64,000 nt of DNA from Protoeuglena noctilucae (Eukaryota), in the NCBI GenBank assembly GCA_958009085.1, contig OY253687.1, positions 248,001 through 312,000 on the forward strand, given 5' to 3'. Of the stretch, positions 5,742 to 64,000 are shown piece by piece; the stretch's first letter is position 1, and each line of letters begins with the position of its first letter. A program made the position numbers and the translations under genes. The notes beneath the pieces are model-generated. The model was given only the letters and a program-made list of their open reading frames with translations, was not told where the DNA came from and did not search any database.

Positions 5742-8700
5742 ATGACTTCCGGTAAGTACATCCTGTTCCGTTGGCATGGTCGGCGCGCGGGCATCGCGCC
5801 TGGCAAGTCCGCAAAGGCTTTGTCGAACTCGCTCTTTGCGACACCGCCTGCAGAGCCGGCGGACGAGTCGTCGGAAGGCGGAGGCGGCCTTTCGAAGTCT
5901 CTCTCTGTGTGGGACATCATCGCCTACGGCCTCGGGAGCACCGTCGGAGCCGGCCTGTTCGTCGTCACAGGTGCAGTCACGCCCTGGCCCTCACCCTTGC
6001 TGTCCGCGCCACCAGCCGCCCAGGCTGATCTCTGCGTCGCCCGCAGGCCGCGCGGCGAGGGTCTTTGCGGGCCCTGCCGTCATCCCCTCCTTCGTGCTGG
6101 CAGGCGTCTCGTGCCTCTTCAGCGCCCTGTGCTACGCCGAGCTGGCATCGGCGATCCCGGTGTCGGGATCCGCGTACTCCTACACGTACATCACGCTGGG
6201 AGAGGCCGCGGCTTGGTTCATAGGGTGGAATCTGACCCTCGAGGTACACGCCTGCCATCTGCGACCCATGTCCTGCTGTCTGCACAGCTCAGTCTCACCC
6301 TCTCACCTGGCATGGCTACCAGCAAGGCTTCAAACTCTCCTTTCCTGCCGCATCTCTCTCTCCGCGCAGTATGGCGTATCTGCCAGTGCCGTCGCACGCG
6401 GGTGGGCGTCCTACGCTGCCAGTTTCTTTCAGGCGATCGGCGCGCCCCTCCCTGCCGCCCTCCACGGACTGCCCCTCTTCCCCGGCACCATCCTCAAGAG
6501 CCTCTCTCCTTTGGTGAGTCACACGCTGACTGTCCAACACACGGCCCCTCGCACACCCTCCTCATCTCATCGCCCGCACCCATTCCTTGCACCATTGCTC
6601 TCTCCCATCTCGTACCTCACCCCTCCCAGACTCCCACTCCCTACTTAACCACCCCAGGCCGCCATCTTGTGCCTCCTCTGCACCCTCATCCTCCTGATGG
6701 GCGTCAAGGAGTCCTCCCGCCTCAACCTCGCCGTCACCATCGTCAACATGGCGGTCATCCTCTTCATCGTCGCTGCTGGTGCCGGCAGCATCCAACGCGC
6801 CAACTGGACGCCCTTCGCGCCCCACGGGGCGCCCGGGGTCCTCGCGGGGGCCTCCTACGTCTTCTTCTCATACATCGGATTCGACACCGGTGAGGGCAGC
6901 ATCGCACATAGGAACTAAGCAATCGCAGTTAACTCACCGTTCCCCCAGCTTTCGGCACCCACAACCCCCTCCAGTGCACACCCACACCTCCCCAAAATCC
7001 CCCTGCAGTGTGCACGTTGGGAGAGGAGTGCCGCAACCCCCAGCGCGACATGCCCGTGGGCATCATCGGCTCGCTGGGTCTCGTCACGGCACTCTACATC
7101 GTCGTGAGCCTCGTCTTGACGGGGATGGTGCCCAGCCATGACATCGACACCCTGGCGCCCCTCGCCACCGCCTTCGCAGAGGTGACCCCTTCGATCCCCA
7201 CTGATGGTTTGACAACGAAGTTGCCTTTCTAGAAGACTCTTTGAGGCTGTCGGGCTCTAGCGCTGAACTGCGCAGCTCCCACGCTCTTTGCCACCTCATT
7301 CCCTCTTCGCTCCATGCTTGTACACGCACTCATCACACTGTCTCACCCCTCTCCATCCCTCCGCCACCCTCTCAGGTTGGCATGCACTGGGCCACGCGCC
7401 TGGTCGCGCTGGGCTCCGTCACCATCCTCACCGCCACCACCTTCTGCTCCCTCTTCGGACAGCCACGCATCTTCCTGTCCATGGCCAGGCGAGGAAATGA
7501 ACACAGCATTCGTAGCACTGTCGTTGATTGTAATATCGAGTGCCGTGGTTGCACGTCGCTGGGCGCAGTTGTGACGACCCACGTCACTTCACCCCATCCC
7601 TCTCACCACCCCTCCCATCCCACCCCGTCCATCACCACCCCATCCCTCACCACCCCCACAACCCCTGCCAACCCACCCCACCCTCACCACCCTTACCCAA
7701 CCCCCCTCTTCCCAGAGACGGCCTCCTTCCCCCTCGCCTCGCCAACGTCGACCCACGCACCCACGTCCCCGCCTTCGGCACCGTGTTCGCGGGGTCCATG
7801 TCCGCCATCCTTGCCTTCCTACTCGACATCGACACCCTCACCGACGTCATATCGGTGCGTGATGCGTGCGTGAACGCCATGTCTCTACGTCCACCATGTC
7901 CTAGTTTCACTCCTGGTTTCAGGATGCTTAGTGGAAGTCGACATGTGCATGGGTCGCTGCCCATGACATCCCAGCCGAGTCGTCCTCGTTGCCAACTCCC
8001 TCACAACACTCCCCTTCTTCAGTACAACCCATCTCGGCCTCTCCCGCAGATCGGCACCCTCAGCGCCTTCATCGTCGTCTGCATCGCCGTCCTCACCCTC
8101 CGCTACTGCCCGCCCATGCCCCAGCCACCGACCTCAGCAGACAGCCCAGGCGCACGGTGGTCCCTCGAGTCAGGCACCAGTGCCGACGCCGCAGCGACCT
8201 TCCTCGCACCAGACGACGCGAGAGATGGCCCTAGCGTGCGCTCGCCCGCCCCGCATCTGGCTGCCCTCAGGGCCCTGCGCGCGCACGAGGCGCCCGTACC
8301 ATTTGCCGCGGTCCCATCGTCGCACTGGGGCGCGAGGCTGCGGAGGGCTATGCGCGCGGTGCCCAACGAATGGTGGATCGCGGCGTTCACTGCCGGCGCC
8401 TTCCTCACCAACCTCGGCGCCAAGGCGAGTGGTGTTGGCTTTGATAGGTGGTTCGTACCACGGTGGGGTGGAGTGAGAGGGAGTGGCTAAGGTGTGGGCG
8501 GGGGGTACGACGCCGACCTTGCCATGGCTGCATGTGCCAATGACTGTGACTGTGTCGCTTGACTGGGACGCGCCTGATCCATTGGCTACATGCCCTAACT
8601 GCTGCAGGTGTCTGTGCCTGTGTCCCTTCTCTCTCTTTGGTTGTGATGTGCCCGCCGCGGTGACTGAGACGTGCCTGATGCAATAGCTACATGCCCTGGT

Positions 8701-9910
8701 TGCTGCAGGTGTCTGTGCCAGTGGCCGACGACGCCTCTGCCGCGCCACGCGTCTCCGAGTCCACCTTATGGCCCCTGTGGGTCGTCATACCCCTGGGCGT
8801 GTCCCTGGTCATTCCCGTCTTTGCGCTGTGGGTCAACTATGGCGAGGGCGTACCCGTGGGGGAGGTGGAGGCGGCGGGGGCGTTGGCTGAGGCGCGGCAG
8901 ACGCCCAACATCGAGTTCACCCGTGAGCGTGGGGTTGTGATCTGTTGTGATGTTATACATAAGCATGCATTGAGTTCGTGAGCGTGGGGCAGTAGTCATG
9001 GCGTCACTGTGAGCTGACCCTGTCATAACCCACACTGAGCAGCACCCCCGTGCCCCCCGTTCTGCAGGCCAGCTGGGTTCGAGTCCGCCCAGCACCCCTC
9101 CTATTCACCACTTCCAGGCAGCCGCGGCGTCCCACGCCACTGACGGCGCTGCCGACGCTGCCAAGGGGCCCAGTGCTCACTTACGCTCCCGATCGGGCAC
9201 GCCGCCGGTGCCACGGCCGGCATCGGCGTCGGGGGTTCTCGATGCGCGGGCGGCGGGGGCAGAGGGCGCGGATGGGGCGGACACGTCGCCATCGGGCCTG
9301 GACATGGGTACGAGCGGGCCACTTCACGCGAGGCATGTCGTGGCGGGGTGGGCGAGGGCGAGCGGGGGTGACGCGGAGGCACAGGTTGCGTCACGGGGTG
9401 CGGACTACCGAGGGGCTGAGGCGGACACGGTGGGATTGCTGGGGCGTGGACGAATGGATTCGGCGGGTGGGGGAGTGGGTGCGGGTGGGGGCGCGGGTGG
9501 GGCGGCGCTGGGCAAGCCGGGGCATGTGGGGGATCGCAGCTCGGCGTTCCGGGGAGGGCCAGGGAGCGTGGATGGTATTGGATCTGACGGCGTCGGTGTC
9601 TCAGCAGGATTATCACATTCGCAGCTAGAATGCTGATGCCTTGACCACAGCGTCGCGCACCATTCTCACACGTCTGAATGGTGACTGAGTCGTAGCTCGT
9701 TACTTCTGCAGAGCTCCGCTGGTCCCCTGGGTCCCCTGCCTGGGCATCTGGGTCAACATGCACCTCATCACAGGGCTGCAGATGGTGGCCATCATCCGCA
9801 TGGTGGTCTGGACGGCTTTGGGGTTCGCGGTGTACCTGGGGTACGGACTGAGGCACAGCAAGCTCAACACGGCCCGGCGCGCGAGGACCGGGGCTCACCG
9901 CGTGGTCTGA
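5742..9910 (+). CDS. Cationic amino acid transporter (APC/CAT family), about 11 exons
   Basis: Motifs GLGSTVGAGLFVVTG, AGPAVIPSF, CYAELASAIPVSGSAYSY, VFFSYIGFD, EECRNPQRDMPVGIIGSL, QPRIFLSMARDGLL and C-terminal PLVPWVPCLGIWVN...YLGYGLRHSKL. Start codon and the 9068-9600 segment are uncertain. Confidence 0.92.
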
Positions 9911-10116
9911 CTGCGCAGAGGTGTGGCTAGCCCACTCCTCGTTTGCAAAGTATGAATGCAGTCTTGCCCTTTGCTGTGCCTGTTTGGCTGTGACAGTGTT
10001 ATTTTTGAAATATCTGCCTCGCATGGTTGTGCCGCCAATTGCGCTGCCGATAGCCTACACGCGCCAGGTCGCTCTCACATATCTCATCGCACATCAAAAG
10101 ACGCGGATCGTTTCAT

Positions 10117-12672
10117 TCACTCCAAAGATGCCGCGTCCTTGCTAGTCCCTCCCACCTGCCAGCTGCGGGCCTTGCCCACACGCGCGGGCCCTGAGATCAA
10201 ATGCCCCGCCTCTGCCTTCCTCGGTGGCACAAATGCCCGACGGAGCTTCGCGGGACGCGAAAGAGGCGCAGACGGCCCCTCCACCTTCACCCCAGGATCC
10301 ACCTTCACCCCAACATCAACTGCCACCTCCGTTACATCCCCACCCACGCCTCCCTGTCCTGGCCCCTCGCACCCCGCGTCGCCCCCCGCACCCACATCCC
10401 TCGCCTCACTCCGCCACGCCACTAAAGGGGCCACGTGGCGAACGCCAATGAACCCTCCGCGCCTTCGCACCCCCGCGATGTGCGGTCGGACCCCCTTGGG
10501 CCCAACCGGGAGCCCGGGCTTGGCGTAAGTGGCCCCAGCACAAAGCTCGACCTCAGCTGGGGCCCTGCCTCGAGCTCCAGCTGCCCCTGCACCCTCGCTC
10601 ATGTCAGGTGGCAGCTCAGGGCCGGCACTCAGTGGCGCTTGGATTGGCGCCGTAGTCCCCCCACGGTGGCACAGCTGGACGGCTTTGGCGGTGTTCCAGA
10701 GACCCAGGGCATTGCGGGGCTGCAGTGGCACCCGGCCGGCATGTACCGATGTGGTTGCGCGCGAGTTGTCTGGAGGCGGACAGCGAGGGCACGGGTGTGA
10801 GGCGGCGAGGGCGGTTTGCAGGCGCTGCTGCACAGGTCCAGCATTGCATGCTCATGTCATCGTGGGCAAAGTGACAGGTCGTTAGCGTTTTATCATCATA
10901 TGTCCACCTCACAAGTACGCTTCCACACTCTCAACGCCCTCGCCTCTCTCAGACGCCGTCCTCTCGCCCTGCCTCTCCCACGCGCGCACTCGTGCCGCGA
11001 AGCCCTCCGGGTCCTCGCAGCTGCAGCACGGCTGGTCTCCCTCCGCGCACCTCCGCACCGCCTCCCCAAAGTGCCGCGACAGCACCGCACGCTTGCACCC
11101 GGCGCCCGACGCAAAGGGCACCACGGAACCCCCGCCCTCGCCGCCCTCGTCGCGTCGGCGGCTCTGTGGCAGGCATGGGGGCCATCCGTGATCCTCTGCT
11201 ACCTGGTGATCGCATCTGCCCCATTACGATATCATGCAAGCAGGCCACAGCTACCCACCTGCGACTCGAGGCGCTGGGACTCCTTGACGCCCTCGTGAGA
11301 GACGTACATGCGAGAGACGGCCGGGGCGCCGTCCCGTGCCGCACGTCCCGACTCTTGCACGAAACCCTCGAGGCTCGTGGGGACGTCCCAGTGCACCACA
11401 AATCGGACGCTGCTGTGGTCGATGCCCATGCCAAACGACACCGTCGCACACACCACCTGGGACGCGGCAGAGATGGGGGCACGGCGTCGGGGGCTGAGCC
11501 ACGGGGGTGCGAAGCACAAAAGGGGTGAGGTCAGCTGGCTCCCGGCAGAGACTGACACTCGCATGTGTGTAGGAAGACGACGACACGCAGTACATGCGAG
11601 ACTCGCCTGCAAATGCTCTTCCTTCCATCGGCTCTGCACCCGCGCCCGAGTCTGGGCGTCCCGTCCTGCGTGGTAGGCCTCCACGTCGACTCCCGCGCTC
11701 TGCAGCTCCCGAGACAGCCAGTCCACCGTGTCCCGCCGCACACAGTACACGATGCCTGCAGGCGCCAGACCAGAGTTGTGGGTCGTTGAAAAACACATAT
11801 CCATTACCTTGCAAGCCGCCCTGCAGCCTCATGCTCAAGTTATACTCTCACCTGTGGAGCCCCCCTGCTTCTCAATGAAGGCCGCCAGGTCCGCCACGCA
11901 CTCCTCCTTGCCCCCGATGGCTTCCTTGAACGCCACCTCGTACCGAATCTCGCCACGGTGGCAGCTGTTCTCCACAGTCACAGGGTCCCGCATCGCGAGC
12001 GCGTCGCGGATGCCACGGCGCACCGCAGGCGTGGCCGTCCCCGTGAGCGCAAGGATCGGGACGTCCGGCGCCACCTCCCGCCGCAGCTCGCCCAGGGACA
12101 GGTATGCGGGGCGGAAGTCGTGGCCCCATTCGGTGCAGCAGTGCGCCTCGTCGACCGCCAGGCAGACCAGCCGGCCGTTCTGAGCAGTGGCACGCAGCGC
12201 GTCGCGCAGCTCCGGCAGCTGCAGGCTCTCCGGGGTTGTGAGCAGCACGCGCAGGTCGGGCTGGTCGTCCGCCAGGTCGCGCAGGACCCGCAGCTTGCGG
12301 TCGGGGGCCACGGAGCTGTTGATGCAAGCACAGCTCACGCCCGCGTCGCACATGTTCTCGTATTGGTCCTTGGCCAGGCTGATGAGCGGCTCCACGACAC
12401 AGCACACGCCTCCCAACATCAGCGCAGGGAGCTGCGGGCCGCGGAAACGATGCTCTCAAGTGCTGTTGTGCCACGACCTGGAGGTGCTCTCGATGGCTCC
12501 AGCGCACCTGGTAGCACAGGCTCTTGCCGGCGCCCGTGGGCAGGACGACGAGCGCATCGCGCCGCGCCATGACGGCCCGGCAAGCAGCCTCCTGGCCTGG
12601 ACGGAAGCTCCTGTGGCCAAACTCGCGTTTCAGGGCATCGAGAAGCGCGCTCCCGTCCATGACGGCGGCCAT
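10117..12672 (-). CDS. RecQ-family DNA helicase
   Basis: FGHRSFRPGQ, LPTGAGKSLCYQ, AVDEAHCCTEWGHDFRPAY, LTGTAT, GIVYC, YHAG, VVCATVSFGMGID, QESGRAARDG and a Zn-binding CKRAVLSRHFGE...C...CCSC. The 3' end is uncertain. Confidence 0.92.
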
Positions 12673-18915: not shown

Positions 18916-20836
18916 TTACCCCACTCCACGCAACCCCGCTAGTAGCCGCTCCAAATCCTCCCGCCCACTCTCCTCGCCCTTGGCACCACCGCACGCGCGT
19001 GGCTCTCCGCACGTCCCTCGACACTCACTGCCCCCGCAGCGGTCCTCATCACCCCCGCAGCGGCCCTCTCGGTCCTCGCAGCGGCCCTCGCCGCCCCCGC
19101 AGCGACCCTCACTCCCCTCGCAGCGGCCCCCCCCTCGCTCCACAGCGCCGTCGCTTGCTGCGCCGTTCGCCCCGTCCCGCCTCTGCCCCCGCCGCTGCCG
19201 CCGCACCCCGATCGTCGGATCCCCCTGATCCAATCCGTCCAGCAACAAACACGCCTTGCACACGGTCTGGGACGACAGGAAGCCGCACCGTGCGCAGCGC
19301 CGCGCCTTGGGCGCAGCCACGGCCGCGGGCGCCACCGTCAGCGCCGCCCCCGATCTGACGATGTCGCTGATGACCCGCGGCCGTATCGCCTCCAGCTCCT
19401 TGACCAAGTCCCTGAGTCATGGAAGGCGTAGTGGCGACGTCACATCACAGTGCGGCATGCGACGCCCGGGCAGACCTACCTAGCGCCACTGCTACTTGGC
19501 AGAGCAGAGCTGTTAGTAGGTACGAGCCCAACCTCGCCCGCGCACGGCATCAGAATCGCCCAAACGGCAGCCTCGCCTGGTGTGCCCGCGTGCCGCGAAG
19601 GGCGCGTAGAGGCACTCCGTGGTAAAGTAGTCGAGGCGTTTGAAGTAGGCGTACATCACAATCTCCTTCTCGTACGTCTCGCGGAAGGGCTTGACCCTCG
19701 GGAGGCCGTGGGCCTCCTCGTCGTCCCCGCCCGTGACGGCCGAGGTGCACCGGCCCAAACGTGCTACATCCCCGCGCAACAGGTTCAGCAGCACGGTCTC
19801 CGCGATGTCGTCTGCGTTGTGGCCCGTGGCGATCTGCGGCGGTACAGGGTGGGGGGGCCCGTATCACTTGCAATAGGGGTTCAATTCCCTTCGTGCCACC
19901 AGGCGGACCGACGCACCAGTCGTGCACCCCTCTGCTCTGGGCTCAACTCCCGCGCACCCGGCGCTGCCTCCCGCCAACACGCACCTTGGCCGCTCCGACC
20001 ATCTCCGCGCCGCGGTCGAGTGCTCGCCGGCGAAAGACCCCGCAGAAGGTGCAGTTGTTCTTCCGCCCAATGCGCGCCACGATCTCGTCCATCGTCCAGC
20101 CGTACAAGTCTGCAGAGGCCGAGGTGCGCACGATGGACGCTGGCGTGAGAGTGCAAACAACCTCTGCGCCGGACAGGGCATGCTGCTGTTGCCAAGCGGA
20201 GCATGGCGGCTGTCGGGACACCCGAACCCACTCGCCCTTGTACGAGACGATCCTGAGAGGGATGCCATAGGTCTTCTCGTTCCGCTTCACCGTTTCCAGC
20301 GAGTCGTCGCGGTACCCCGCGATGCCCTCGTCCACCGAGACCAGCATGAGGTCCAAGCCGTATCCGTGGCGCTTGTTCAGCAGCGAGAGGAGGTGCGCGA
20401 GGACCGTCGAGTCCTTGCCGCCTGCGCATGCGATGGAGTCAGATGTGCAGGGACTTAGAAACTCGCGCGCGGCGTTCAGCGGGCGCCGGGAGGGAGGCAC
20501 ACGAAGGGCGCTCTTGCCACCTCCAAATCCCCACGCACCCGATGCGCCAATGGCCACGCGCTCCCCCGGAGAGAAGATTTGGTTGTCGACGATCGTGCGG
20601 TGGACCTCATCTTCGATGGCAGTGAAGAAGCACTCCCTGCGAGCCCGCAACACGTGCAGTCGACTCTGCGCGGCGCTACCCGCCATCATCCAGCGCGCTT
20701 TGGATACAAACCTTCAAAGCTGTTTCGTTGCATTCACAATAACTCACTTGCATATCACTTGCCCCGTCTTGGGCCTCTTCAGCGCCGCCAATCCGGTCTT
20801 GCACACGGCGCAGCCGCGTCGCCGACCGTCAGCCAT
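18916..20836 (-). CDS. CTU1: Cytoplasmic tRNA 2-thiolation protein 1 (CTU1/Ncs6)
   Basis: CAVC...KRPKTG..ICK, PP-loop [79 protein letters not shown] and [16 protein letters not shown]. Confidence 0.96.
19010..19135 (-). repeat. 21-bp coding tandem repeat (about 5-6 units) in the CTU1 tail
   Basis: The plus strand repeats cc(c/t)cgcagcg(g/a) every 21 nt, encoding [35 protein letters not shown]. Confidence 0.85.
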
Positions 20837-21159: not shown

Positions 21160-22846
21160 ATGGTGAACATCGAGGAGATTGACTTCTCGGCTGGGGCCAG
21201 CGGGGCGCAGAAGGAGGCTGTCCCCGCGCCGAGGCAGGCTCCGCCCACGAAGGAGGAAATCATCCGCCGGAGCGCTCGGAGGCTCGTGGCGGCTCAGGAG
21301 AAGGCCCAGATGGATCTCAAGGAACGCTTCCGCAAGCTCATGGGTGCGTTGCTTCGCCGCGTCGCACGCCATCGCCTCGCCAGTGCCTGCGCAAACGTCG
21401 CGGACATTTGACGCCCTCATCGCGACACGATCCGCGCGAGCGACGCCCTCGCAGCGTGGCTGTTTGTCGTCGTCATCGTCCTCCAGATCCCCGTGTGCGA
21501 GGTACAGCATCCGAGCCTGGGAAAGGTCCCGATGTCCCCGCTGCAAGTCAGCGTGTCATACCTCTCCAGTGAGTTATGATTTGCGGGCTTCCTGTGCATA
21601 CGGCTTCTCTTACAGGCACTGCCTGCTGCCCCTTTGCTTCCTGGACGCCATGGCATGGCAACTGCGACTGGGACGTGCTGTTAAGTACCGCTCCCGACCC
21701 ATGCCACCGTCGCCTACACAGACTCCTTGAGCAACCTCATGGGCCCCGAGAAGCACGACGTCGTCCTCAAGGTCATGCTGTTTCCGGGGATCCAGTTCCG
21801 CAACGCGTGGAAGCTTTTCCACTGCCACGTCCGCCGATCGGACCTGCACTGCCGCCAGCCGTTCGTGACGTGGGCGTCCGCCCTCCAGAGCACGGCGCCG
21901 CTGCTCGCGCCGCAGGTGACGTGCGACGGCGGTGCGCTGTTACTGCTGGTCCTTGTCGGCTGACGCGGGCCTTTCTGGGGCAAGGCGGTTCAAAGGCCTC
22001 GCCAGGACATCGCCGGTGGCAATGGTTGCGTACAGAATGGTACAGTGCTGGGAGCCTGCGTGAGCTTGGTCATCGCAGGAGATCCGCCGGGCCCTGGAAC
22101 ACACGCTCGACAGCTACCAGGGGATGCAGATGGTCGTCACGGGATGCGCGTTCCTGACGCTCGCGGCCGCCGTCACCCTCCTCCGCTCCTCCGCCATCCT
22201 GGTGAGAGCGTGGGCGCCGTCGGCACGCTCACCTCCAACTGACTCAGCCGTATTTGATTTTCGATTACTTGGCCATCGCCCGGTTTTCGCAGTCGGTGCT
22301 GGGCGTGGCGACGCTGGGCTTCGCGTGCTGGCGCAACCACCTGCCCCTCAAGTACGGCATGTACCTGGTCGTCTACCTCGTCCACATGTCCGCGCGCTTC
22401 CCCATGGCCAGCAAGCGCGGCGTGAGGGAGCAGGCGAGGACCCTTACCCGACCGCAACACCGCTGCCTGCTCCCACTCTGCGTCCTCCTCGCGGGTCCGC
22501 TGTCGTGCCTTCGCACCTGTTAGTCAATGAACTCGCTATCTGCCCTTCCGCCCCTCAGGCGCACATTGCTGCGATCGCCAACTTTGAGCGCATTCTCCGC
22601 GCGAGTGGGATGACGGGGGAGGAGATCGAGGCAGCCACGGACGAGGTGGTGGGAGGGAAGGGCAAGGGGAAGCGTGACGGGGCCAAGAAGGAGACGACGG
22701 GGCCCCAGCAGGCGGCGGCTGGCGATAAGGGGAGGGCGGAGACTGGAGGTCGCGTCCAAGCAGGCGATGAGCCCGGGGGTGCCCCTGGCACAGGGGCAAC
22801 TGCCAGCGCAGGGGCGGGGGATGTCTCGCAGAAGGGGACTTCCTGA
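21160..22846 (+). CDS. Hypothetical multi-exon membrane protein
   Basis: Exon-like segments with GC3-biased codons (MVNIEEIDFS..., LSNLMGPEKHDVVLKVMLF..., SVLGVATLGFACW...YGMYLVVYLVHM, AHIAAIANFERILRASGM) flanked by splice signals. No family recognised. Confidence 0.6.
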
Positions 22847-48320: not shown

Positions 48321-51111
<2,791 letters not shown>

Positions 51112-51521
51112 GAGGGGCTGGGCGGGGTGCAGCCTGCGGCCGCGTGCACCTAGAGAGCCGCGCTGCTTCGTCCACCTTTCAACCGGCGGTTGAATGGAGC
51201 ACACCAACGCGGGCCGGGGCGTCCGCGCGGCACGCGGCGTGCGGCCTCAGGCAGGCATCGCTGCGATGGACGAAAACCTACACGCGCCAGCCCAGAATCT
51301 GCTCTGCAGCCCGTCTGCGACCCTCTGGTACGTGCAGGAGCCCGGCGCCGCCGACCTTGCGGAGGGAGGAGGCGCCGGGTGAACCCCAAGTGGCCGGGCG
51401 GCTCTGCAGGACGGGCGAGGGTTAGTAAGGAGCGACGGGGCCCGTGGTGCGCCTGGCCATCGCTCGCATGCGCGTTCGCGGGCCACGTGTCACGTACATG
51501 CGACCGCGGCCGCCGCGCACC

Positions 51522-52391
51522 TCAGTCAATCTTGCGGCGGAAGGAGCACCCCTCCTGCAGGCGGGCACGCCCCCCCGTGGGCGTGCAGAGGACCGAGGAG
51601 CACGTCGTGCAGAGGACCACCGTCTGAGAGTGCGAGAAGACCGTCGTGCTGCGGGGGCGGGGCGGGACGGGCGTTGTGAGGCGCGCCGGGACGCACTTGG
51701 CTGGTGTGTCCCATCCCGGGCCCCCCGGGCGTGCCCCGCCGCGCCCGCTAGCGAACACAATCAATGACGGCCGACGCTACCGCCACCGGGAGGGCCCGGC
51801 GACCCCGGGGGCGGGCGCCCGAAAAGAAACCGCCAGACGACGCGACAGGGGCCCCGGATCCCCCCAAACGGCGGCCGCCGACGAACGAGGCCGTCCGTCG
51901 ATCGCGCGGGGCCGGTCGTCGCCCTGGCGATGGGGCCCGGGCCCCCGGGAGCCCCCCCGAGCCTCCAGGCCCCCGCCCGCCCCCGGGAGGGGTGCGCGGG
52001 TCGCGCCATCAAGGCGACAGAGAGACGGTACGATACCGCGACTCTCTGCAGAACGCACGCCGCCTGAAGCACGGCGAGGCGGGAGCGCGGGGGCAGCCAG
52101 ACCCGGTCGAGACCCGGCACTCACATCTGGAAGCAACCCTGGCACTTCACGTCCATGAAGAAGGAGTTGGGGGACTGCACCAGCCGCTTGCGCTTGTGCC
52201 TCCGCGCCTCCAGCTCCTTGGGAGGGTGGAGCAAGTCAATGTCGTGCGAGAGAACCTGCGGTGTCGTCAGAGCAGCGCCGGCGTCAGAAGAAAGCGCGGG
52301 GGGGGCCGGACGCGGAGGGCCGGCGCGGCAGGGGGCCTCGGCACCCCGCGCCCGCCCGGTCCTGCGCCCCTCGCGGGAGAGAACTCACCAT
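51522..52391 (-). CDS. RPS27: 40S ribosomal protein S27 (eS27)
   Basis: [86 protein letters not shown]. Confidence 0.97.
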
Positions 52392-52596
52392 TGTGCCTGA
52401 GCCCGGATCAGCCGCACAAGGTTCCAAAGAGGGAGGTCGACGGCGTCCCCGCGCGCACTTCCGCCCGCGCCGCCGTTCTGACAGATGCCAGAAACACAGG
52501 GCAGTCGACCCTCGCCGCTGGAAGGCCCTGCGGCTGCGTCGCAGCGCCACTTTCGACCGGTTTCGTCGCGTGGCCCGATAGACGGTGACTGGCGCC

Positions 52597-53580
52597 ATGT
52601 CCGCGGCGAGGTGTGGCCTGACGGCCTCCACGACGGCCTCCACGAGGGTGAGCCCGCGATGTCGCCGCCGTTGCTTGTGCGCTATGACTCAAGCGTGAGG
52701 ATGCCGCCGAGCAGCCGCGCCAGCTACCGCGACCGGCCCTCCGCTCGGTCTCCGCAGTTCGGGGCGAGGACGCAGGGCAGGACTCCCCGCGCGAGCGTGC
52801 AGGTGAGCTTTTTGGAAATATGTCCCAGACGCCGCGCCGCATGGGGGGCGCAGGGCTTTTTCGGGACCAAATGCTTGGCGTCCAGGGCCTTGGGGGAGTC
52901 TGCGTGCGGTTGGTTGCGCTCCCAACCAACATCGCGTCGCATGCGTGGGCTCGGGTTTGCGCGCTCGTGTCACGCGGGCCCCATGCGGCCTCCTGTCCCG
53001 GCGCCGCGTCTATCCATTGGGCGCCGCGCGACGGGCTCTCTTCCGCCACCATCATGCGCGCGTCATGGTCAACAAGCGTATGAGGTCGCACTGGCAAGCT
53101 CGCGCCGCTCGAGCCCCGCGGCAAGGCGCGCCTCGCCCTCGCCCACAGGTGCGCGCGGCGGCGGCGGACGCCCCCGAGAAGATTCGCATCAAGCTTAAGT
53201 CCTTCGACACGGCACTGATCCAGGAGTCGTGCACGGAGATCCAGGCGGCCGTGGAGGTGCGGCACCGCCGCTCCCGCGCGGCGCTGGGTCCGCGACGCCG
53301 CCGTTGGCTGCCGCGGCCCCGCCTGCCCTGGCCCACGCGAGCCCGCTGCCCTGGCCCGCAGGCTACGGGCGCTCGCATCTCGGGTCCCGTCCCGCTGCCG
53401 ACCAAGCGCCGGATTTACTGCGTGCTGCGCTCGCCCCACGTGAACAAGGACTCGCGGGAGCACTTCGAGACCCGCACCCACCAGCGCCTCATCGACATCT
53501 ATGATATCACCTCCATGACGGTCGACCGCCTCATGCAGCTCGACCTGCCCGCGGGGGTCGACGTGCAGGTCAAGCTCTGA
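52597..53580 (+). CDS. PRPS10: Plastid 30S ribosomal protein S10 (uS10c)
   Basis: Ser/Thr/Arg/Ala transit peptide over two small exons, then [10 protein letters not shown]...[39 protein letters not shown]...[13 protein letters not shown]. Confidence 0.95.
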
Positions 53581-53694
53581 TGCGACACCTGACACCCTGA
53601 CTCGGAAACTGCTGCGTGCCACGCCAGCGGCGCATTCAAGCCGCTCGGATGGTGTCCGAGCCCCGTGCGACCGGGCCGGGCAGCGGCAGCCCAG

Positions 53695-56062
53695 CTACCA
53701 GTCCGACATGTCGTGCTTCTGCTCCCGCTGCTCCTTCCATCGCCGCTCGTTGGTGATTTTGAAATACTTGGCCTCGAAGCCGTTGCTGCGGTCGCGGCCG
53801 TCCCAGTGCCGCCCCGGCCGGATGTCGAACCGGTTGGGCGGTGGGCCGATGCCGCGCTTGAGCCACGAGTGGGCGGGGACCTCCTGGGGGATCCTGAAAC
53901 CCTGCTTGAGCAGCCGCTCTCGCATCTCCGGCGTCAGCACCTGCGGAGCCGCCCGATATTGCCGCATCTCGCACCTGCAGGCCGCTGGCTTGGCCCGCGC
54001 CAACAGGGGCCAGACTCGTTTGTTCTGCACAAGGTGCCTGGCGCAGCCAGTCGCACTGTCACGACCGCCACAGCGCGCGCAGCTGCGCAAGTCTAGTCGC
54101 CTCACCCCGAGTGTCACGGCCGGGGCTGCCCGGCCTGACCCCACGCCCTTCGCAGCCGCAGGGTCGCCCCACCGTGTCTTGCGCCGCGCTTCCCAGTCCA
54201 GCACCTCGTTGTCCTTGGTCACCGCAAACGGCATAGCCTGCGGAGCGCGTAGGGACTCCAACATGCCTCGGCACGCTCGCCGGCATCCAGCCGGCAAAGC
54301 ACGGGGCGGGCAGCAAGAGCGAAGTGGCAGACACAGCCCACGACTCTCGGGGGTGTAAGCAACTGGCCACTGCCCCTTATGCAGGGGAACCATCAGTAAA
54401 CAAAACTGCACGTCGCCTCTCACCTTCAACTCCTCCTGCTGCTTCCGCCTGGCCTCTGCCGCCTGCAGCTGCGCCAGGCCCCCGCCCCAGTCGGGACGGA
54501 ACGATGTCTCATCCCTGCTCCTCTTCTTCCTCCGCTCCCTGCGCACAGCGCCCATCGCACTCTCGCAGGCACACTCAGGGCCCCTGACAGCGTGGCTGGC
54601 TGCTGTGCCAGTGCTGCACCGCATGTCGGCAACACGGCACAGCAGCGCCCGCATGGCCATGTGAGTCGCGACGTGAGTGAGAGCAATTATCCTCGCCTGT
54701 CAAACTCCTCTTTGTCCACCAGCTTGCCCTCCTTGTTCCGGTACACGGTCTGCACCTCAGCGCCACGCCCCAGCGCCCGGGGGTCTAAGGTCTCCATGCG
54801 CCTCTGCTCCTCCGCCCGTCGCGCGCGCATCTCCTCCTGCAATGACAAACACGGGTCTTATCGATGACCGTGAGCGGTTCAGAACCAAGTTACAGACAGT
54901 GAGCATAAGGGGTGGTCTCAGGCAGCAGGTCACCTGCAGGTCTTTGGCCAAGATCATGCCAGCCCTCGTCCCATCCGCCATGCGTGGGCTGGCCGGGCGG
55001 GGCCCTGCCCCTCCAGCAGCCACGGGCTTGCGAGGCGGGCTTGCATCCGATCCCCAGTCGTGGCGCTGCCGTCGGGGCGGGCTCGCGTCAGAACCCGAAT
55101 CGTGCCTCTGACGCCGGGGTGGGCTGGCATCCGATCCCGAGTCGTGCCTCTGACGCCGGGGTGGGCTTGCGTCAGACCCGGAGTCGTGCCGCTGCCGCCT
55201 GGGTGGGCTTGCGTCAGAACCCGAATCGTGCCGCTGCCGTCGGGGTGGGCTTGCGTCGGAACCCGAGTCGTGCCGCTGGCGCCGGGGCGGGCTCGCGTCC
55301 GAGTCTGAGTCGTGCCGCCGTCTCCCGATACCACCCTGGGCGTCTCTGCCAGACACAGAGGGCTTTCCCGCCGGCTCCACAGCCACCCACCCTGACCCAT
55401 CCTCGTCCCGGCCAAAGTACTGCCTGTGAGCGATGACATCGCATGTCCGATGGAAGCACGAGCTTATAAGCATGTATGTGTTTGCACGGCGTGTATGTGT
55501 TTGTGTAAACCCGAGCGAAGAGCACCCCGGCGCGAAGCGCACCTGGCGCGCTCCTCACGGCGCTGCTGGAACTCAAACTCCTTCTCGTTCACGGTGACTG
55601 CCCCCTCCAACTCGTCTTCCTCATTCCCCTCCTGCGTGCAGGGAGAGCTGCCCCGTGCCGCGCGCGCTCTCAGGTGACGGGCGTGCTCCTAGCAAGCGCC
55701 GCCGCTGCCTCTCCGAACCTGTTGAAGCTCCGCTGGCTTGCACCCCGAGATGTCCTCGTCCTTGATCACAAGCGCCTGAGATCCGGTGGATTTGGCCGCT
55801 TTCGCCTTCTTTTTCTTCTTTTTCCGCCCCTCGTCGCCGCCCTCCCCCGTGTACTTCTTCTGTGCCGAGGGACGATCTCTGGGTCTCGGTTCCAGCCGCG
55901 CAATGTTCAACATGACACGTTTGGGGACCAACCAGCGCCGCGAGCGTCGCGGGCCCACCGCGCGCTCACCAAATAGGCTTGCAGCGCGGCCGCCCGGGCC
56001 TTCTCCTCCTCCGTTGGGCCCTCGTCCTTCCGCAGCAGGCTCATACCCTCAAACTTCGACAT
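53695..56062 (-). CDS. BUD13: Pre-mRNA splicing factor Bud13/Cwc26 (RES complex)
   Basis: RHDS-DASPPR repeats, GAEVQTVYRNKEG, WGGGLAQ, RWGDPAA and PPNRFDIRPGRHWDGRDRSNGFE. Confidence 0.95.
55029..55325 (-). repeat. 42-bp coding tandem repeat (about 7 x RRQRHDSGSDASPP) in BUD13
   Basis: Directly visible in the sequence and in ORF 54757..55542. Confidence 0.93.
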
Positions 56063-56526
56063 GGCATCAAAGCCCCCCCGGGTCCCTCCCACCCCGCCCG
56101 GGCCGCTTCGCACGCGTCAAACCGCGTGCCCGTCAACTTTGGCGGCCCAGGCTGGCGAAAGGGGTTTTGCGATGGGCGTTTCGTGGACGCCGTCAGCATG
56201 TGACAGGGTCGCTAGCAACTGGCAAGCCACGAGAGCAACAATTCTCCTCAGTCTCGCTGCGAGCTGACGTCCATCTGGCGCGCCAGGTGCAGGTCTCCGC
56301 CCGGCGCCCTTCGAAAGGCGAAGAGCCTTGCGCCTCGCTGCCATGTTAGCGCCAACGTCGGCCTTTATGGTCGCGTTGCCGGAAAGGCGCTGTTCTGTGA
56401 CGCCGTGGATCAGACCGTAGCGACCGCTCCTGCCTGGTTCCCAGAACCGACCGCGTTGTGATTCCATTGGGTAGCTCAGATATCCACGGCGGTATCCCCG
56501 CGCTAGCGGCAAGGGAAACCGCTTGG

Positions 56527-58555
56527 ATGCGGGGAATTCGCCTGGTCACAGTGGCGGTGGCCTTGACGGCCATCCTCGGGCGAGTTGGCACCTAGCACGC
56601 ACTGGTGGCTAGATGGGACCTCTCGTTGCACTGCAGCGACGCCGTCTTCACTCGATCGCTGCGCTGATCTCGCCGCCTTGTCCTTGCCGGACAACACGGA
56701 GATGCCGCACACTCCCTCACCGCCCAGCGCTGGCCCGGGCCCCCGCGATCGTGCTCGTGCAGCTGCTGAAGTCCACGAACTAGCGCCGATCCCCTTGCAG
56801 GGTTGCGGCGGCAGTCCGCTTCGACATCAAGGATGCAGGCGGGGTGTGCGTGACGCAGCCTGCGGGGCCGCCCTCTTTAATCGCGGGTGAGGAGCGTGCA
56901 TCTATATCGCCGCAGCTGAGCCCCCGAAACCTGCATACCGCGGCGATGTCGCAATGTCCTTCGACCCGCGGGTCCGCAGGGTCCATTTACTCGATGGACT
57001 CGGCTGGGCTTCACTACATCCCGCTGACCCTCACCGTCACCGATCCGAGCGGGCATATCATTTCTCAAGGGAATCCCGAGTACGTCGCGTTCGAGGAGTG
57101 GCTCGACGACATCCCCGCGACCACCAAGGGCGACTACAAGTTCTGCATCGAAGGTGACGCGCGCTCGATGCTCTGCGCGCCGCATGATCTGCGCGCATGT
57201 GGACTCTGGACTCCTCACCGCACCGCCACGCCGCACACGCGCAGTCGCCTCCTCCTACCTCGGCCGGAACCCGTACCCTTACCCGGTGGCGTTCGACCTT
57301 AGCCTCACGACATTCAAGCCCAGGGACTCCCCGTTCGCCGCTCCCGACAGCAAGCCCGTCGCTGCCGACGTCGACCTCCATAAGGCGATCTCGGATATCA
57401 TGGTCAAGGCGAGCACCTGGGGCGCTGGCAGATCGGGCCTGCCCCATCGGCGGCTACAGGCCCCTGCCCGGCCGAGCGCTGAGCGCCGAGCGTCGGCAGC
57501 CCTTCCACGCAGATGGATCACGTGAAGCGCGAGAGCACGTTCCTGGCCACGCGGTGGAGGCGGCACAGCGCCAACAACAAGGCCCTGGAGTCGCGCCTCC
57601 TCTGGGGGACCGCCTTCCGGTGCTTGGTGGTCATCGGATGCCAAGTCTTCCAGGTCTACTTCGTGCGGTCCATGTTCAAGAACAAAGGCTTCTCGGGCAT
57701 CCTCGGCGAGATGTCGGTGAGGGGCGGACGGGTGCCTCAGCTGGCGGGCAACAGGTCGGTCCTTGCAGCCGCGCCAGACGCTGAGCACACGGGGCGAGGC
57801 CCGCTGTGGTCGCAGAACGACATCGCGGCCATGCGCAACGCGAGGCAGGTCGCGGCAGCGATGGCCGGGCCAGTGCTCAGCAAGATGGGAGGCCCGGCGT
57901 TTGCGCCCGTCGCGCGGGCGCCGTCCTTCGGGCCCCCCGGTGAGGGCTCGCAGCGCATAACAGCAAGTGCGCGGCGGGGTTTGGAACGCGCGCCCTGCGG
58001 CCATCCACGCGGCCCCGTTGCCCTGCGTGCAGGCGCTCCTACGGGCTACGGCACCTACGGCGGAGTGGCGTCTCAGCCGGAGCCCGCGTGGTCAGGGGCG
58101 CCCGCGCAGCCGGCTGCGCTCCCGTGGTCCCACTCGTCGGGGGAGCATGCGGCGGTGGGGCCCGCGTACGGAGCGACGCCCGCGCTCGGTGGGGGCGTCG
58201 AGCCGCAGGATCGTGTGATGCCCGAGGCCGAGGCAACGGCGTTTGGGAGTCGCGTGCCCCACGGTGGGATGGTCCACAAGGCAAGCTCGCACGGCGCTCC
58301 TAGGTGTCCCAGCCTTCGTCCTTGCTGGAGTGGCGAGTGTCCACCTGACCCATCCGGCTCCGCCTGCAGCGAGGTACACCGACGACGGGGCACTTCCAGG
58401 GTCAAGGCGCATACGGGGGACCTCAGCCGACCGGGGGGCCAGGGTACGTGGGGGACGGCATGCCGCTGCCGGCTCGGGTGCCTTCAGGGGGCGCGACGAC
58501 GTGGCAAGCGCCTGCAGGGGCGGGATGGGGGGCTGGCCAGAGGGGCCCTTACTGA
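56527..58555 (+). CDS. p24/emp24 GOLD-domain protein with extended C-terminal tail
   Basis: Signal peptide MRGIRLVTVAVALTAILG|VAAAVRFDI, GOLD LTVTDPSG...KGDYKFCIE, coiled coil MDHVKRESTFLATR..H...NKALESRLLW, and TM ending QVFQVYFVRSMF. Confidence 0.8.
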
Positions 58556-59188
58556 GCGCAGCGTCGTGTTTCCGAGATTCTGAACCCGACTAGTGCCTGA
58601 CTAAGTGACTTGCTGTTTGGCGGGGTCAAACGATGCGGGCCCGCGCGATGCCCGCGTGGCCGCACATTCCACCCTTCTTGAAATTTGGCAGGTTAGGGAG
58701 GGGTGTAGATGCAATAGGATACTGCAGACGAGCACATACTCGGGAGGCCCCCGCACATCGCCAGGCGAGCGTCATGAACGTTGCCGTTTGGAGGGACGCG
58801 AGATTGTAGTGCGGACAACGGTTGTTGGCAAATTGTCCCGAGAGATGCGCAGCGGGGCCGGTTATCCGGGGCTGCAAGGTTAAGCCACACGTGGGCCCGT
58901 GCGTCCCGGTCTTGGCCCGCACCCGTGCGCCTGCGCCTGCTATGGCGAGATGAAGCGATGTAGTGGAGATGTGCGGAGTTACTTTCCCAAATGTCGGACC
59001 GCTAGGGCTCCTGGGGGAGGAGGACATGCTTCGCAGCCTTCCCGGGCTCGAGTTCAGCGGCGCCGGGGTTCCAACCGCGTTGCGCAGGCAGTCATGATTT
59101 CCGTGCTCATGAATTATGTAGCGCATGCTCCAGCCCGCGAGATTCCTGCCGAATGCGACGTGAAAGTCACATGCCCGCAGGGCGTGCA

Positions 59189-61436
59189 ATGACCACCCAC
59201 TACACGGACTACACTTGGATCGTGGGGCTCGGTGCAGTGCTGTCCTTTATCACCGCGTACGGCATCGGGGCGAATGACGTGGCCAACGCTTTCGGGTCCT
59301 CGGTGGGGTCGCGGGCCATCACCATCAAGCAGGCGCTGCTCATTGCGTCCGTGTGCGAGTTCTCCGGAGCCATGGGACTCGGAGCCCAAGTAACGACTAC
59401 AATCCGCGTGGTGAGCATCCGCGGAGGAGGCTCTCGGGGCGCCAGGCTGGGGAAGGGTGCGGGCTTGGTCATGACATTGCCACCTTGCGCCTCTGGCCGC
59501 AGGGCATTGCCAAGTTCAGCGTCTTTGCGGACGCCCCGGACCTGTTCATGTTCGGCATGCTCTGCACGTTGGCCGCCACGGGCGTCTGGCTCATCCTGGC
59601 GACGGCGTTTGAGCTCCCCGTGTCGACGACCCACTCGTGCGTCGGTGGGGTGCTGGGGTTCGCCATCGCCGCGCGCGGGCAGCAGGCCGTGGTGTGGTAC
59701 GGCAAGGCCCAGCCGGGTCAGTTCCCCGTGGGCGGCGTCGCCGGCATTGTCATCTCGTGGGTCTTCTCGCCCGTGTGCTCGGGCGTGCTGGCCTCGCTCC
59801 TCTTCTACACCGCACGCACGGTCGTGCTCCGGTCGCGGCACTCGTACGCCCGCTCCTGGCAGACGCTGCCGTGTTGGGTCTTCCTCACGGTGTCTCTCAA
59901 CGTGCTCTTCATGGTGCTCAGCGGCGCCAAGGTGCGTACGCTGCATGTGCAGGGTGCATGCGACAGGCGTGCGGGCTGTGTGGCACCAGCCTGACTGTGT
60001 GTGCATGGCTGGTAAAACCAGCCACGGCACCTTCACCCTCACCCTCACCCTCATTGTAACCCTCCACCCCACTCTCTCGCACCGCAGTCAAGGACCTCCA
60101 GCATGTCCAACAGCCAAGCCATCGGCGTGAGCCTGGCCACGGGCGCCGCGACAGCCCTGGTCATCGCCCTGCTCATCCGGAGCGTGCTCAAGCCAAAGGC
60201 GGAAGAGCTTTTCCAATCGCGGATACGCAGCGGCGAGATCGTCCCCGTGAGTCGCCGCGTGCCTCGCTCTGCGTGCCTTCCGCACGCGGGTTCGTTTGAC
60301 TCTAGAGTGACGCTCTGCCTGGCGGTGCAGAACGGTCGCTGCATGCGCTTACGTCAGTGTTGGGACGTGCGACACTTGCGCCTTTGCCGCAGGACCCCGA
60401 CAACCCGAACCGGTATCTCTACGACCAGATGCGCATCCGTGAGACGGAGATTCAGAAAAAGAATGAATTCGACGCCAAAGGCGACAGGAACGCGGCCAAG
60501 TCCCTGTTCCAGACGCTGACGACGGGCCTGCGTCAGGACGTGCACGACGTGGTGGACACGGACGTCGCCGTGAGCACCATCCACGGCTCGGCTGAGGTCT
60601 TCGACGCCCGCACGGAGGAGGCGTTCAAGTACCTGCAGGTGTTTACGGCCATGTCCAACTCGTTCGCGCACGGGGCGAACGACGTGGCTAACTCGGTGGG
60701 GCCCATGGCCGGCATCTGGTACGTCTGGAAGACGCAGAAGCTGAGCAAGAAGACCGACGCGTCGACGGCGAACGACATGTACTGGATCCTGGCGCTGGGC
60801 GGCGCGGGCATCATCGTGGGGCTGTCGACGTACGGCTACATGATCATGCGCGCCCTGGGCGTCAAGATCGCGAAGCTGACGCCGTCGCGGGGGTTCGCGG
60901 TGGAGCTGGGGGCGGCGTTTATCATCGTGATCGGGTCGCGGCTGGGCCTGCCGCTGTCGACGACGCACTGCATGGTGGGGTCGACGATCGGCATCGGGCT
61001 GCTGGAGGACCACCGGGGGGTCAACTGGGGCTTCATCCCGCGCATCGTGTTCGGGTGGGTCATCACGCTGGTGTTCGTGGGGTGCACGTGCGCCATGTTC
61101 TACGCGATGGGGGCGTACGCGCCCAGCGTGTACGGCATCCGCGACCGCGACTTCTACCAGAACGTCATTGAGGGCTTCACCACGTCGCTCTACCGGTACG
61201 TGAACGTGACCGACAGCGCGCAGCTCGTGGCGTCCAGTCAGTACAACAACTGGACCGCGACGCTGGGCCGCGTGAACGACCAAGCCGAGTTACTGTACCA
61301 GACGAGGCACGCGTCGTCCGGGGCGCGCGTCATCGGCCGGACCGAGGTTGGCCATGTCCTCGATGACACCCTCTCGTTCCTGATAGGATCCGATGGGCGC
61401 TCGGGTATGCTGAGCCAGTGCGCCAAGTGGACCTAG
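59189..61436 (+). CDS. PiT/PHO4-family (PTB-type) Na+/phosphate symporter
   Basis: Two signature motifs, [17 protein letters not shown] and [14 protein letters not shown], plus [25 protein letters not shown] and [12 protein letters not shown]. Confidence 0.96.
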
Positions 61437-61950
61437 TGTGCCTTGTCCACCCAGTGGGTGGGTGACCGAGCCTTTGCGCGTCCTGCGACCTCCCAGCCCT
61501 GTTGTCTCGGCGAACACTTCACGTACCTGGCCCCTTTTTGCTCTCGGACCCGGGGACCACCACCCGCACCTCTCGTAGGACTAGGGTTGTTAGTTAGGCC
61601 CACTCTGCGCGCCGCGGCGTTTCAAGCTCGCTGACAGTAACCCAGCGGTGTCAGCCTCTTCCTCCAGGATGAGGAGCCAGCTGGATGCTTGCTGGCATCG
61701 AAAAGGTGCCGCGGCGCCGTTGTGCTGCGGCCGCTGCCGAGGAATGGTGGAGGCATTGCAGTGGGCCCGTGTGGGTCCCACCCCCGGAGCCCTCAGGGGG
61801 TGAGTCCATCATCTTGCTGTCAGCGAATGTGGAGACGATTCTCCTCTACGCAATGCAATTGGGATTTGCGGCGGATGGGGACGCATCGCTCCGCGATCCC
61901 GGCGTTTTCACACCGAAGCCCGATTGCGTCTGCAGGACGCCTGCGAGCAC

Positions 61951-64000
61951 CATGCGCTCCCAGGGATCGTCCGGGAGTACTACCGGCAACGATCACTCCG
62001 CCAGCCTCGGCTGGGCCGTGCTGGCGCTGGCCGGCTTCGCCGCGTTGTGGAAGGCGCCGCACAAGACGGTGGCCGCCGTGGTCTCGGGGCCCGTGACCAT
62101 TGCCAAGTCCTTCCTTTTCATCGTATTGGCCGTGGACGCCGTCCTCATCGCCCAGCCGTGGCTCGTGGGCCTTTCTAAGAGGCACGCTCCGGGCTTCCAC
62201 GCGAGCCTCAGGTGGGTGGCGCGCGTTGCAGGGATCCCCAACATCTTCTTGCAGCTGACATGGAGGTGGGGGTGTGCGGGGTCACTCCCCGCGTCGCCCC
62301 GGTTCTCGCAGCAAGCGCGTCGTGCAGTTCGTGCGCTATCAGCTCCGTCTCTCGGATGCGGAAACGCCCGAGCTGGCGGTGGCCGCCGACGAGGCCGACG
62401 GTCGGCGTGGCGGGAGCGCGCCCTCCGCGGACGTCGCTGAGGCCGTCGCGTCGGCCCTCTCGGACCCCAAAGGTGCCGCCCCCTCCCCCGGCGCCCCGCC
62501 AGCGCGGTGCCCGCCGCCACGAGCGGCGATGGGACACTTATTCAACGTATGTCTGCCCCCGCAGGACCGTTGCGGGATCTGGTGAAGCGCTGGGCGGAGG
62601 AGGCGAGGGCGGCGGGCCCCAGCGACTGGCGGGACATGCCCACCCCCATGATGCCGGCCCGCGGGGCCGCCCCGACCCCCGCTGCCGTGCCTGCCGGCCT
62701 CACTCGCGCCCAGGTCGAGCGCATCGTGGACCACCACATGGAGCGCTGCCTCCTCAGGCGAGGGAGCACGTTGGGCGGACACGTGGGCGGCTGCAGTTGC
62801 CAGTCCCGGCCTCGCCCCCGCCCGTGCGATGAGACAATTCCGCTCACTGTCGCGTCCCCGCATTTGGTTTCGAAAGTCGGCACTTCAACTCCGTTTTACT
62901 CTTCTTGCCGGCTGCTGACCTTTTCTCGCCACCGCAGTGCACCTTTCGCTTCCGCTGCTGTTGGCTGCTGTTGGCCCCATTGCCATCCTCTCACCCTGAC
63001 CCCCGCCGCAGCGACCGCTCGGAACTGCGGGCGCTGCGCACGCAATACATGGAGGAGGTGCGGGTCGACGCGGAGCGCAAGTGGGAGGGCATCCGCTCCC
63101 AGGCCGACCCGCTGATTGCGCAGATGACGGCCCTGGCCCAGGACACTCGAGTCCTGCATGCGGTGAGCTCGCTGCCCGCTTGCTTTGGCTCGCAACTTTC
63201 GCTCCATTAGAGCCTCAGTGGCCCACCTCTGCACTTCACTACCCCCATCGCCAGCCCTGCTGCTTGTTCACCACGTGACCTTGCGACACCAGGGCGTGCC
63301 TATCCGCGCCCCGCACTGCACGTTGGTGTGCTGTGCTCGACCGCAGGATTTGCGAGAGCAGTGGGACGACTTCTCAAAGAGCGAGGTGGAGGCACGCAAT
63401 GCGTGGGTGGCTGAGACCCAAACACGCATGCAGGAGATGCGCGACGCGATGAAAGCGCAGTTGGGTGCGCTGAGAGAGGAGGCCTTCCGGCGCATGGATG
63501 CCGACAGGTGAGGGATGGGGTTCGGGGTGGGTTGGCGAGAGGGAGCGGTGGCAGGCCAGGGCATGGCACGAGGAGTGGCGAGGTGGTCATGCATGGGCTT
63601 GCGAGCGTCCCTGTGGGTCCCATCTGCCTTTTGTCGTCCTGAATCATAACGTAATTGGAGAGGTTCTGGCATCGTTGTCGCCCTAGATGCGAAGAACCAG
63701 CCGTGCCACCCTCGCAGGGACGCGGCGCAGAGGGAGGTTTCTGACGTAGACCGCTGGCTGACGTCATCGCTGGAGGACGCGCAGAAGGACCTGCAGGCGC
63801 TCGCGGCTCGTGCGGAGGCGCAAGCGGGCGAGCTGGAGCGCGCGACGGCCGAGCTGCGCCAGGACCTGGCGGGGCAGATGGCAACGGTCGCATCGAAGGA
63901 AGAGCTGGAGTCAGCGAGAGACGAGGCGATGAGGGCTGCCCAGGAGGGCCTCGCTGCGTTGCGGGAGGACGCGGAGGCGGCGATTCTGCGGGAGAGGGAG
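61951..64000 (+). CDS. Partial gene: N-terminal hydrophobic helices followed by a long coiled coil (runs off the window)
   Basis: Exons SELRALRTQYMEEVRVDAERKWE, DLREQWDDFSKSEVEARNAW and DAAQREVSDVDRWL...ELERATAELRQDL join in frame. Start and family uncertain. Confidence 0.6.

Follow-up and report, generated by a model that had tools for sequence, protein, structure and literature searches.

The stretch of Protoeuglena noctilucae DNA considered here (contig OY253687.1, positions 248,001 to 312,000; hereafter the window, 64 kb in all) is nuclear and gene-dense, has a GC content of 64–69% (66% overall), and contains genes with introns that begin with GC in place of GT and end in AG (GC-AG introns). 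Pfam searches of 150 open frames name a CAT-type amino acid permease, a RecQ helicase, a DEAD-box helicase, CTU1, PRP4, the ribosomal proteins S30, S27 and S10, four tandem Sec14 copies, an MFS transporter, a Mur-ligase-type gene, SQD1, BUD13, a p24 protein and a PHO4 transporter. The closest homologues of CTU1 and BUD13 are those of green algae and land plants, with identities of about 70% or less, and the N-terminal leaders of SQD1 and of the nuclear-encoded plastid S10 are simple and rich in Ala, Arg and Ser; both features point to a marine green alga. The GC-AG introns are real and their share is clearly elevated; they are of a kind already known and do not represent a new type of splicing.

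The original prediction placed GC-AG introns at 13 independent sites. A G|GC donor is present at every one of them, and the ten introns proposed with both ends all start with GC after an exonic G and terminate in AG. The p24 donors at 56580, 57409 and 58281 read G|GCGAG, G|GCGAG and G|GCAAG, and the donor tally of 11 GCGAG, one GCACG and one GCAAG is correct. The GC..AG ends hold for the ten introns and also for two p24 introns whose ends were placed in this analysis. As independent introns, however, the sites differ in standing: six are confirmed, four are probable and two are possible, but that at 58281 is unsupported. The GGCGAG motif is not diagnostic by itself, because only 12 of its 128 occurrences across both strands are donors in the curated intron set described below; for GGTGAG the figure is 34 of 78.

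GC-AG introns are removed at six sites, in SQD1, BUD13, RecQ, CTU1 (two introns, CTU1a and CTU1b) and CAT1. These sites are distributed over five genes and 47 kb, and the evidence comes from RNA, from a contig-derived protein or from collinearity with homologues. Contigs of four RNA runs were aligned to 44300–64000, and 15 of the 46 joints were listed. Among these, 14 resolve to one standard reading, 13 GT-AG and one GC-AG. The latter is the SQD1 intron (49438–49560, forward strand), the sole claimed site among the listed joints, with five further claimed sites of 44300–64000 lying outside the listing. The SQD1 intron is 123 nt long, in frame and stop-free, with the donor GCACG. The joint, 49434 to 49558, is found in three of the four runs (X1, X2 and X5, from two studies). 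It has three ambiguous bases and was initially labelled CA..CG, but GC..AG is the only standard pair that it allows. Spliced RNA had been proposed as a check of the claimed sites; it upholds the GC donor of SQD1 in these three runs.

In BUD13 (54539–54696, reverse strand; donor GCGAG), the evidence is P0121, a protein of 218 residues derived from a public assembled contig of 1636 bases. Starting in the exon that precedes 54696 and continuing as far as the stop codon, it matches the spliced BUD13 model with 100% identity; as the identity continues over the junction, the intron has been spliced out.

The RecQ5-like helicase has a GC-AG intron of 150 nt at 11457–11606 (reverse strand), which is in frame and stop-free. 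The read-through open reading frame (ORF) aligns with human RECQ5 in two blocks, residues 17–73 with 243–299 and 125–179 with 301–355, and the insertion relative to RECQ5 is exactly codons 75–124, i.e. the 50 codons of 11457–11606. A similar picture is seen in CTU1. The first intron, CTU1a (20110–20235, reverse strand), is 126 nt in length and also in frame and stop-free; against the archaeal thiolase 6scy, residues 83–159 match 43–118 and residues 202–235 match 119–156, with 42 codons inserted between the blocks. The second, CTU1b (19412–19576, reverse strand; 165 nt), lies where the alignment with TtuA continues beyond the one GT donor that could be used and takes in a conserved Cys. The best GT-only parse loses 13 residues there, including the Cys aligned with TtuA. 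Both introns were compared with 84 homologues of 310–400 residues, drawn from 119 other proteins listed. The GC model outscores the GT-only model in 84/84, and it is ungapped to within eight residues of the junction in 84/84 for CTU1a and in 81/84 for CTU1b, the GT-only model being ungapped in 0/84 and 4/84. The sixth confirmed intron, CAT1 (7489–7715, forward strand), is in the cationic amino acid transporter gene. The exon chain is open, and the junction is ungapped over eight residues on either side in 8/8 matches of at least 430 residues (of 59 homologues).

Five of the claimed introns have a length divisible by three, and the four described as in frame and stop-free, those of RecQ, CTU1a, Sec14 and SQD1, are correctly so described. 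It was also anticipated that gene predictors would read through such introns, and this has happened: the public ORF call P0001 crosses the CTU1 intron. Another public call, P0122, reads through BUD13 introns.

Two other features of these genes were observed. BUD13 has a large exon at 54934–55120 (reverse strand) that encodes repeated units of the Arg-His-Asp-Ser-Gly-Ser-Asp type; it was skipped by the parser and revealed by P0121. Within 48232–53937, single RNA contigs join neighbours on opposite strands, SQD1 (forward) with RPS27 (reverse), and plastid S10 (forward) with BUD13 (reverse). The 3′ ends of these convergent transcripts must therefore either adjoin or overlap.

Four further introns, those of CAT2, Sec14, PRP4 and the p24 gene at 56580, are probably GC-AG introns. 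CAT2 (8425–8708, forward strand) belongs to the same transporter as CAT1, and the evidence is reading frame, third-position GC (GC3) and rough collinearity. The upstream frame meets a stop at 8488, and the frame downstream is open from 8679 onwards; within the interval GC3 is down to 0.54, vs 0.92 and 0.80 in the flanks. The model is roughly collinear with the closest homologue, P0261, with a five-residue difference, and none of the in-phase GT alternatives scores above −0.4 bits. The CAT2 intron also has an internal direct repeat (8540–8720) that copies the acceptor region. After the next exon, at 8923–8990, there are two copies of the donor word GTGAGCGTGGGG at a distance of 55 nt, and no good in-phase donor was found in modelling the 3′ part of the gene, 8923–9711.

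The Sec14 intron (33950–34060, forward strand) is in frame and stop-free. It probably follows a 21-residue exon which ends at the donor and matches positions 16–42 of CRAL_TRIO_N (E = 7.6e-4). The sole PDB match of this upstream exon is the Sec14-family protein PDR16, a weak one (E = 1.4), and PDB searches with the Sec14 ORF and with the downstream exon gave no match. The four tandem Sec14 (CRAL-TRIO) copies occupy 33638–42085 with a period of 2267 bp. Proteins of copies 1–3 are near-identical, and copy 4 diverges in its middle and 3′ part but is the same as the others around the GC intron. The intron was said to be present in all four copies, and indeed exon and intron are identical there; because of this identity the four copies count as one case.

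In the p24 gene, a probable GC-AG intron at 56580–56800 (forward strand) follows the signal-peptide exon. The open chain 56527–56579, 56801–56886 and 56980 onwards provides a signal peptide and then the start of the GOLD domain. Only via the GC donor is the signal-peptide exon in frame with the first GOLD-domain exon, and the sole in-phase GT alternative scores −8.7 bits. The PRP4 intron (27664–27796, reverse strand), near the 5′ end of its gene, is suggested by frame and coding score. It has no in-phase GT alternative, the read-through frame is non-coding-like and the short upstream exon is coding-like. The parser described below retains it under a GC penalty of 6 bits. A PDB search with PRP4 exon 2 gave no match.

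Two introns are possible on the basis of composition, frame and donor scores. The p24 candidate at 57409–57512 (forward strand) has a donor flank of 7.4 bits vs 1.1 for an alternative GT six bases upstream, use of which would alter the protein by two residues; GC3 is 0.71 inside vs 0.84 and 0.96 in the flanks. The other candidate, at 62758–63011 (forward strand), is in the last gene, which encodes a coiled-coil protein. It survives a GC penalty of 6 bits, with GC3 of 0.64 inside vs 0.88 and 0.92 outside, and its GT alternatives score −1.5 bits or less. The remaining claimed p24 donor, at 58281 (forward strand; 58281–58369, the 3′ end being guessed from the nearest good acceptor), is unsupported. 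It is about 600 nt past the end of the p24 Pfam match, its flank is weak (3.3 bits), and the sequence is of low complexity in a frame that is open to 58581. Over 57513–58580 the p24 frame is in fact open for about 290 codons past the p24 domain and is rich in Pro and Ala, with a good GT donor at 57717. A protein search with p24 exon 5 found no match among proteins of 78–249 residues, and a metagenome scan found one locus only (L001), a weak and unrelated match. Pfam gave no match for 9 of 15 short exons.

A candidate that had not been claimed earlier, at 22434–22558 (forward strand) in a predicted membrane protein gene, looks good as a predicted GC-AG intron. Its donor is CAG|GCGAGG, the read-through frame has one stop, and the parser keeps it at a 6-bit penalty.

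The gene finder was a Viterbi exon-intron parser trained on GT-AG introns only, in four rounds. Its GT-only parse gives 24 genes and 95 introns and recovers 12 of the 14 RNA joints, but it breaks or truncates CAT, CTU1, BUD13, PRP4, Sec14 and p24, genes with claimed GC donors. With GC allowed at a 2-bit penalty there are 100 introns, 14 of them GC; 11 GC introns are found at 4 bits and nine at 6 bits. The GC-allowing parse recovers eight claimed sites unaided, and when run on CTU1 alone it places both claimed GC introns exactly. As a control, ten decoy dinucleotides were put in place of GC, and these yielded 1–8 introns at 2 bits and 0–6 at 4 bits. Thus GC stands out, yet the parser has a true false-positive floor. 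In all 12 GC intervals, third-position GC and coding score fall inside the interval.

Several parser calls were discarded. The GC intron called at 54837–55371 in BUD13 is refuted by P0121, the true intron being 54837–54933 and GT-AG. The call at 7489–8270 jumps two real exons, and that at 43982–44309 crosses an assembly gap. The call at 56839–56979 is seen at zero penalty only, and the real intron there is 56887–56979, with a GT donor.

To estimate the share of GC-AG introns, a curated set of 98 non-redundant introns was assembled from the parser output, with corrections from RNA and homologues and with Sec14 copies 2–4 taken out. This is in agreement with the earlier rough count of about 100, although the figure of 98 carries an uncertainty of about ±15 because many introns are predicted only and the parser misses some exons and invents others. 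The six confirmed introns give a floor of 6% [confidence interval (CI) 2–13%], the ten confirmed or probable introns give 10% (CI 5–18%), and twelve introns give 12%. Against a background of 1.5%, p = 0.0037 for six of 98 and p = 2e-6 for ten of 98. The share is therefore 6% at minimum, with a best estimate of about 10–12%. The earlier figure of about one intron in eight is a fair upper-middle estimate. The claim that GC-AG introns are far above the approximately 1% usual in plants and animals stands, as the six confirmed introns of about 98 already exceed 1.5%.

The donors keep the local consensus (C/A)AG|G[T/C]GAG, with C for T at +2. Among nine confirmed or probable GC donors, −1 is G in 9/9, +3 is G or A in 9/9, +4 is A in 8/9 and +5 is G in 9/9. 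None of the nine has a U12 donor box, as that motif is generally known. Of 25 GT donors that RNA or collinearity verifies, 24 carry G and not A at +3, which fits GC pressure on the whole donor signal. Matches to the U1-complementary flank average 5.8 of 7 in the GC donors vs 4.6 of 7 in the 25 verified GT donors, in a comparison where the selection of sites is motif-biased (Mann–Whitney p = 0.0015 for the six confirmed sites and 0.0003 for nine sites). Stronger flanks at GC donors are a compensation long described for GC-AG introns in other eukaryotes. The introns very probably are ordinary U2-type introns with C at +2, making up about a tenth of all introns and tolerated through GC bias and strong pairing. 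U1 small nuclear RNA (snRNA) would pair with the donor such that C at +2 is a single mismatch, which might be offset by almost complete pairing of the positions −3 to −1 and +3 to +6. GC-biased mutation or gene conversion would supply T-to-C changes at +2 continually; with strong flanks, selection against C at +2 would be weak and GC donors could build up.

Several points weigh against this interpretation. The GC-AG fraction is 1 in 14 among the interpretable listed RNA joints (7%, CI 0.2–34%), which is compatible with a low share, and one contig of run X4 crosses 57409–57512 unspliced, although it weighs little because X4 has other unspliced pieces. The denominator of 98 rests largely on the gene finder of this analysis, which made at least one false GC call (54837–55371) and missed one CAT exon, and one 64-kb window may not stand for the genome. 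The flank comparison is biased to strong flanks because the sites were found via G|GCGAG, and the SQD1 donor GCACG, found from RNA, has weaker flanks, with C at +4. Thus the earlier suggestion that T-to-C is tolerated by strong flank pairing has the greater number of matches on its side, but is qualified by the motif-led choice of sites and by SQD1. Nor is GC content the sole factor, because GC-rich Micromonas commoda is reported to have GC donors at 1.5% (PMC4815162). The high share would then be a property of the lineage and not a consequence of GC content alone. Might the cluster be due to chance or wrong gene models, with a genome-wide share near 1–2%? The single GC among 14 listed joints, the 1–8 false introns obtained with decoys and the refuted GC call would suit this; the six confirmed sites in five genes over 47 kb, improbable at a 1.5% background, make it very doubtful. 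That the real donors are GT, with C at +2 arising from a mistake in assembly or sequencing or from a polymorphism between strains, is extremely improbable: a dozen independent sites would need the identical T-to-C change at the same donor position, and DNA runs X8–X11 contain every word sampled from 49000–58900. Marine metatranscriptome runs contain 40–48% of these words.

An alteration of the splicing machinery (the U1 5′ arm, U1C, U6 or Prp8), with GC recognized about as well as GT, overlaps partly with the reading of ordinary U2-type introns and is unlikely, though it has points in its favour. The share is about tenfold over the plant mean of 1.2% (PMC6310983), GC content alone is no predictor when M. 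commoda at 1.5% is set beside Micromonas pusilla at 25.6% (PMC4815162), and splicing takes place at the SQD1 donor GCACG although its flanks are weak. On the other hand, the flanks at GC donors are still stronger than those at GT donors, which is what a costly mismatch would predict, and GGCGAG is far less often a donor than GGTGAG (12/128 vs 34/78). A Rfam search at gathering thresholds found no snRNA gene, nor any other match, in the window. A more specific proposal, that a lineage-specific change in 5′ splice-site recognition made C at +2 near-neutral, an independent rise in green algae without introners, is speculative and quite unlikely; if true, comparison of U1, U1C and Prp8 with those of M. 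pusilla, pelagophytes and Emiliania would tell whether the same change recurred. As to introner elements, i.e. a spreading repetitive intron family that carries GC donors, there is a precedent in M. pusilla, where 79% of GC donors are in D-IE1 introns (PMC4815162), and GGCGAG is common to 12 of the 16 curated GC donors. However, an all-against-all blastn of the 98 introns shows one short pair between two GT introns, no pair among the GC introns and no family, and GC introns range in length from 87 to 644 nt. The GC introns are thus not a spreading repeat family, as they have no internal sequence in common, and this explanation is highly improbable.

Other features of the window are set apart from the GC donors. 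An assembly gap of 200 N at 44046–44245 is within the MFS transporter gene, and the gene model across it is therefore unreliable. A gene at 394–2367 encodes several AP2-like DNA-binding repeats, the sole Pfam AP2 match being weak and under the family cut-off. RNA contigs over the PHO4 exon differ at three neighbouring bases, 60974–60976, and have a non-standard joint from 61007 to 61130 (GA..GT, with a 32-base side) and loose contig ends at 61161 in all four runs. The anomalies over 60974–61161 probably come from a related paralogue or from the conserved PHO4 of another organism.

The consequences of these findings are chiefly practical and concern annotation. Gene predictors limited to GT donors would mis-model about one-third of the genes here, and annotation of the P. 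noctilucae genome, or metatranscriptome mapping to it, should permit GC-AG introns.

In 121 plant species GC-AG introns average 1.2% (PMC6310983). They are of the same U2-type class and have the AG acceptor, but their frequency is about tenfold lower than in the window. The original prediction cautioned that high GC-donor shares might already be reported, and this is borne out by publications on M. pusilla, pelagophytes and Emiliania huxleyi. In M. pusilla CCMP1545 25.6% of donors are GC, the share being 43.5% among introner introns and 9.7% among regular ones, and M. commoda has 1.5% (van Baren et al., 2016, PMC4815162). M. pusilla is likewise a marine green alga with a GC-rich genome, its 9.7% in regular introns is close to the approximately 10% found here, and predictors that require GT missed its GC donors, as here. 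It differs in that 79% of its GC donors are in introners and that it has about one intron per gene, whereas the window has no such family and about four introns per gene. The alga of the window belongs to another lineage than Micromonas, as its BUD13 is just 59% identical.

Outside the green algae, the pelagophytes Aureococcus (14–17%) and Pelagomonas (about 14%) have GC-AG shares similar to that of the window, which the authors ascribe to high genomic GC (bioRxiv 10.1101/2024.10.30.620910). Pelagophytes are stramenopiles with 0.2–0.9 introns per gene; the window, in contrast, has simple transit peptides and its best homologues are green. In E. huxleyi, 56% of 241 curated junctions are GC-AG, nine of them verified by reverse transcription PCR, and the high share was ascribed to the GC-rich genome (Feldmesser et al., 2014, PMC4028052). 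There too the genome is GC-rich (65%), the AG acceptor is kept, predictors misplace junctions and intron retention is noted; E. huxleyi is a haptophyte, however, and its share is about five times that of the window. A survey of 263 species also found Emiliania and Aureococcus to be rich in unusual introns (PMC11347168). Searches of the literature on GC-AG introns and green algae found no such share reported for an intron-rich green alga without introners. P. noctilucae adds an intron-rich, introner-free green alga to the few GC-rich marine algae with many GC donors. It offers one more lineage for the comparative study of 5′ splice-site tolerance, and, being free of introners, a case that helps to tell the effect of GC pressure from that of repeat spread.

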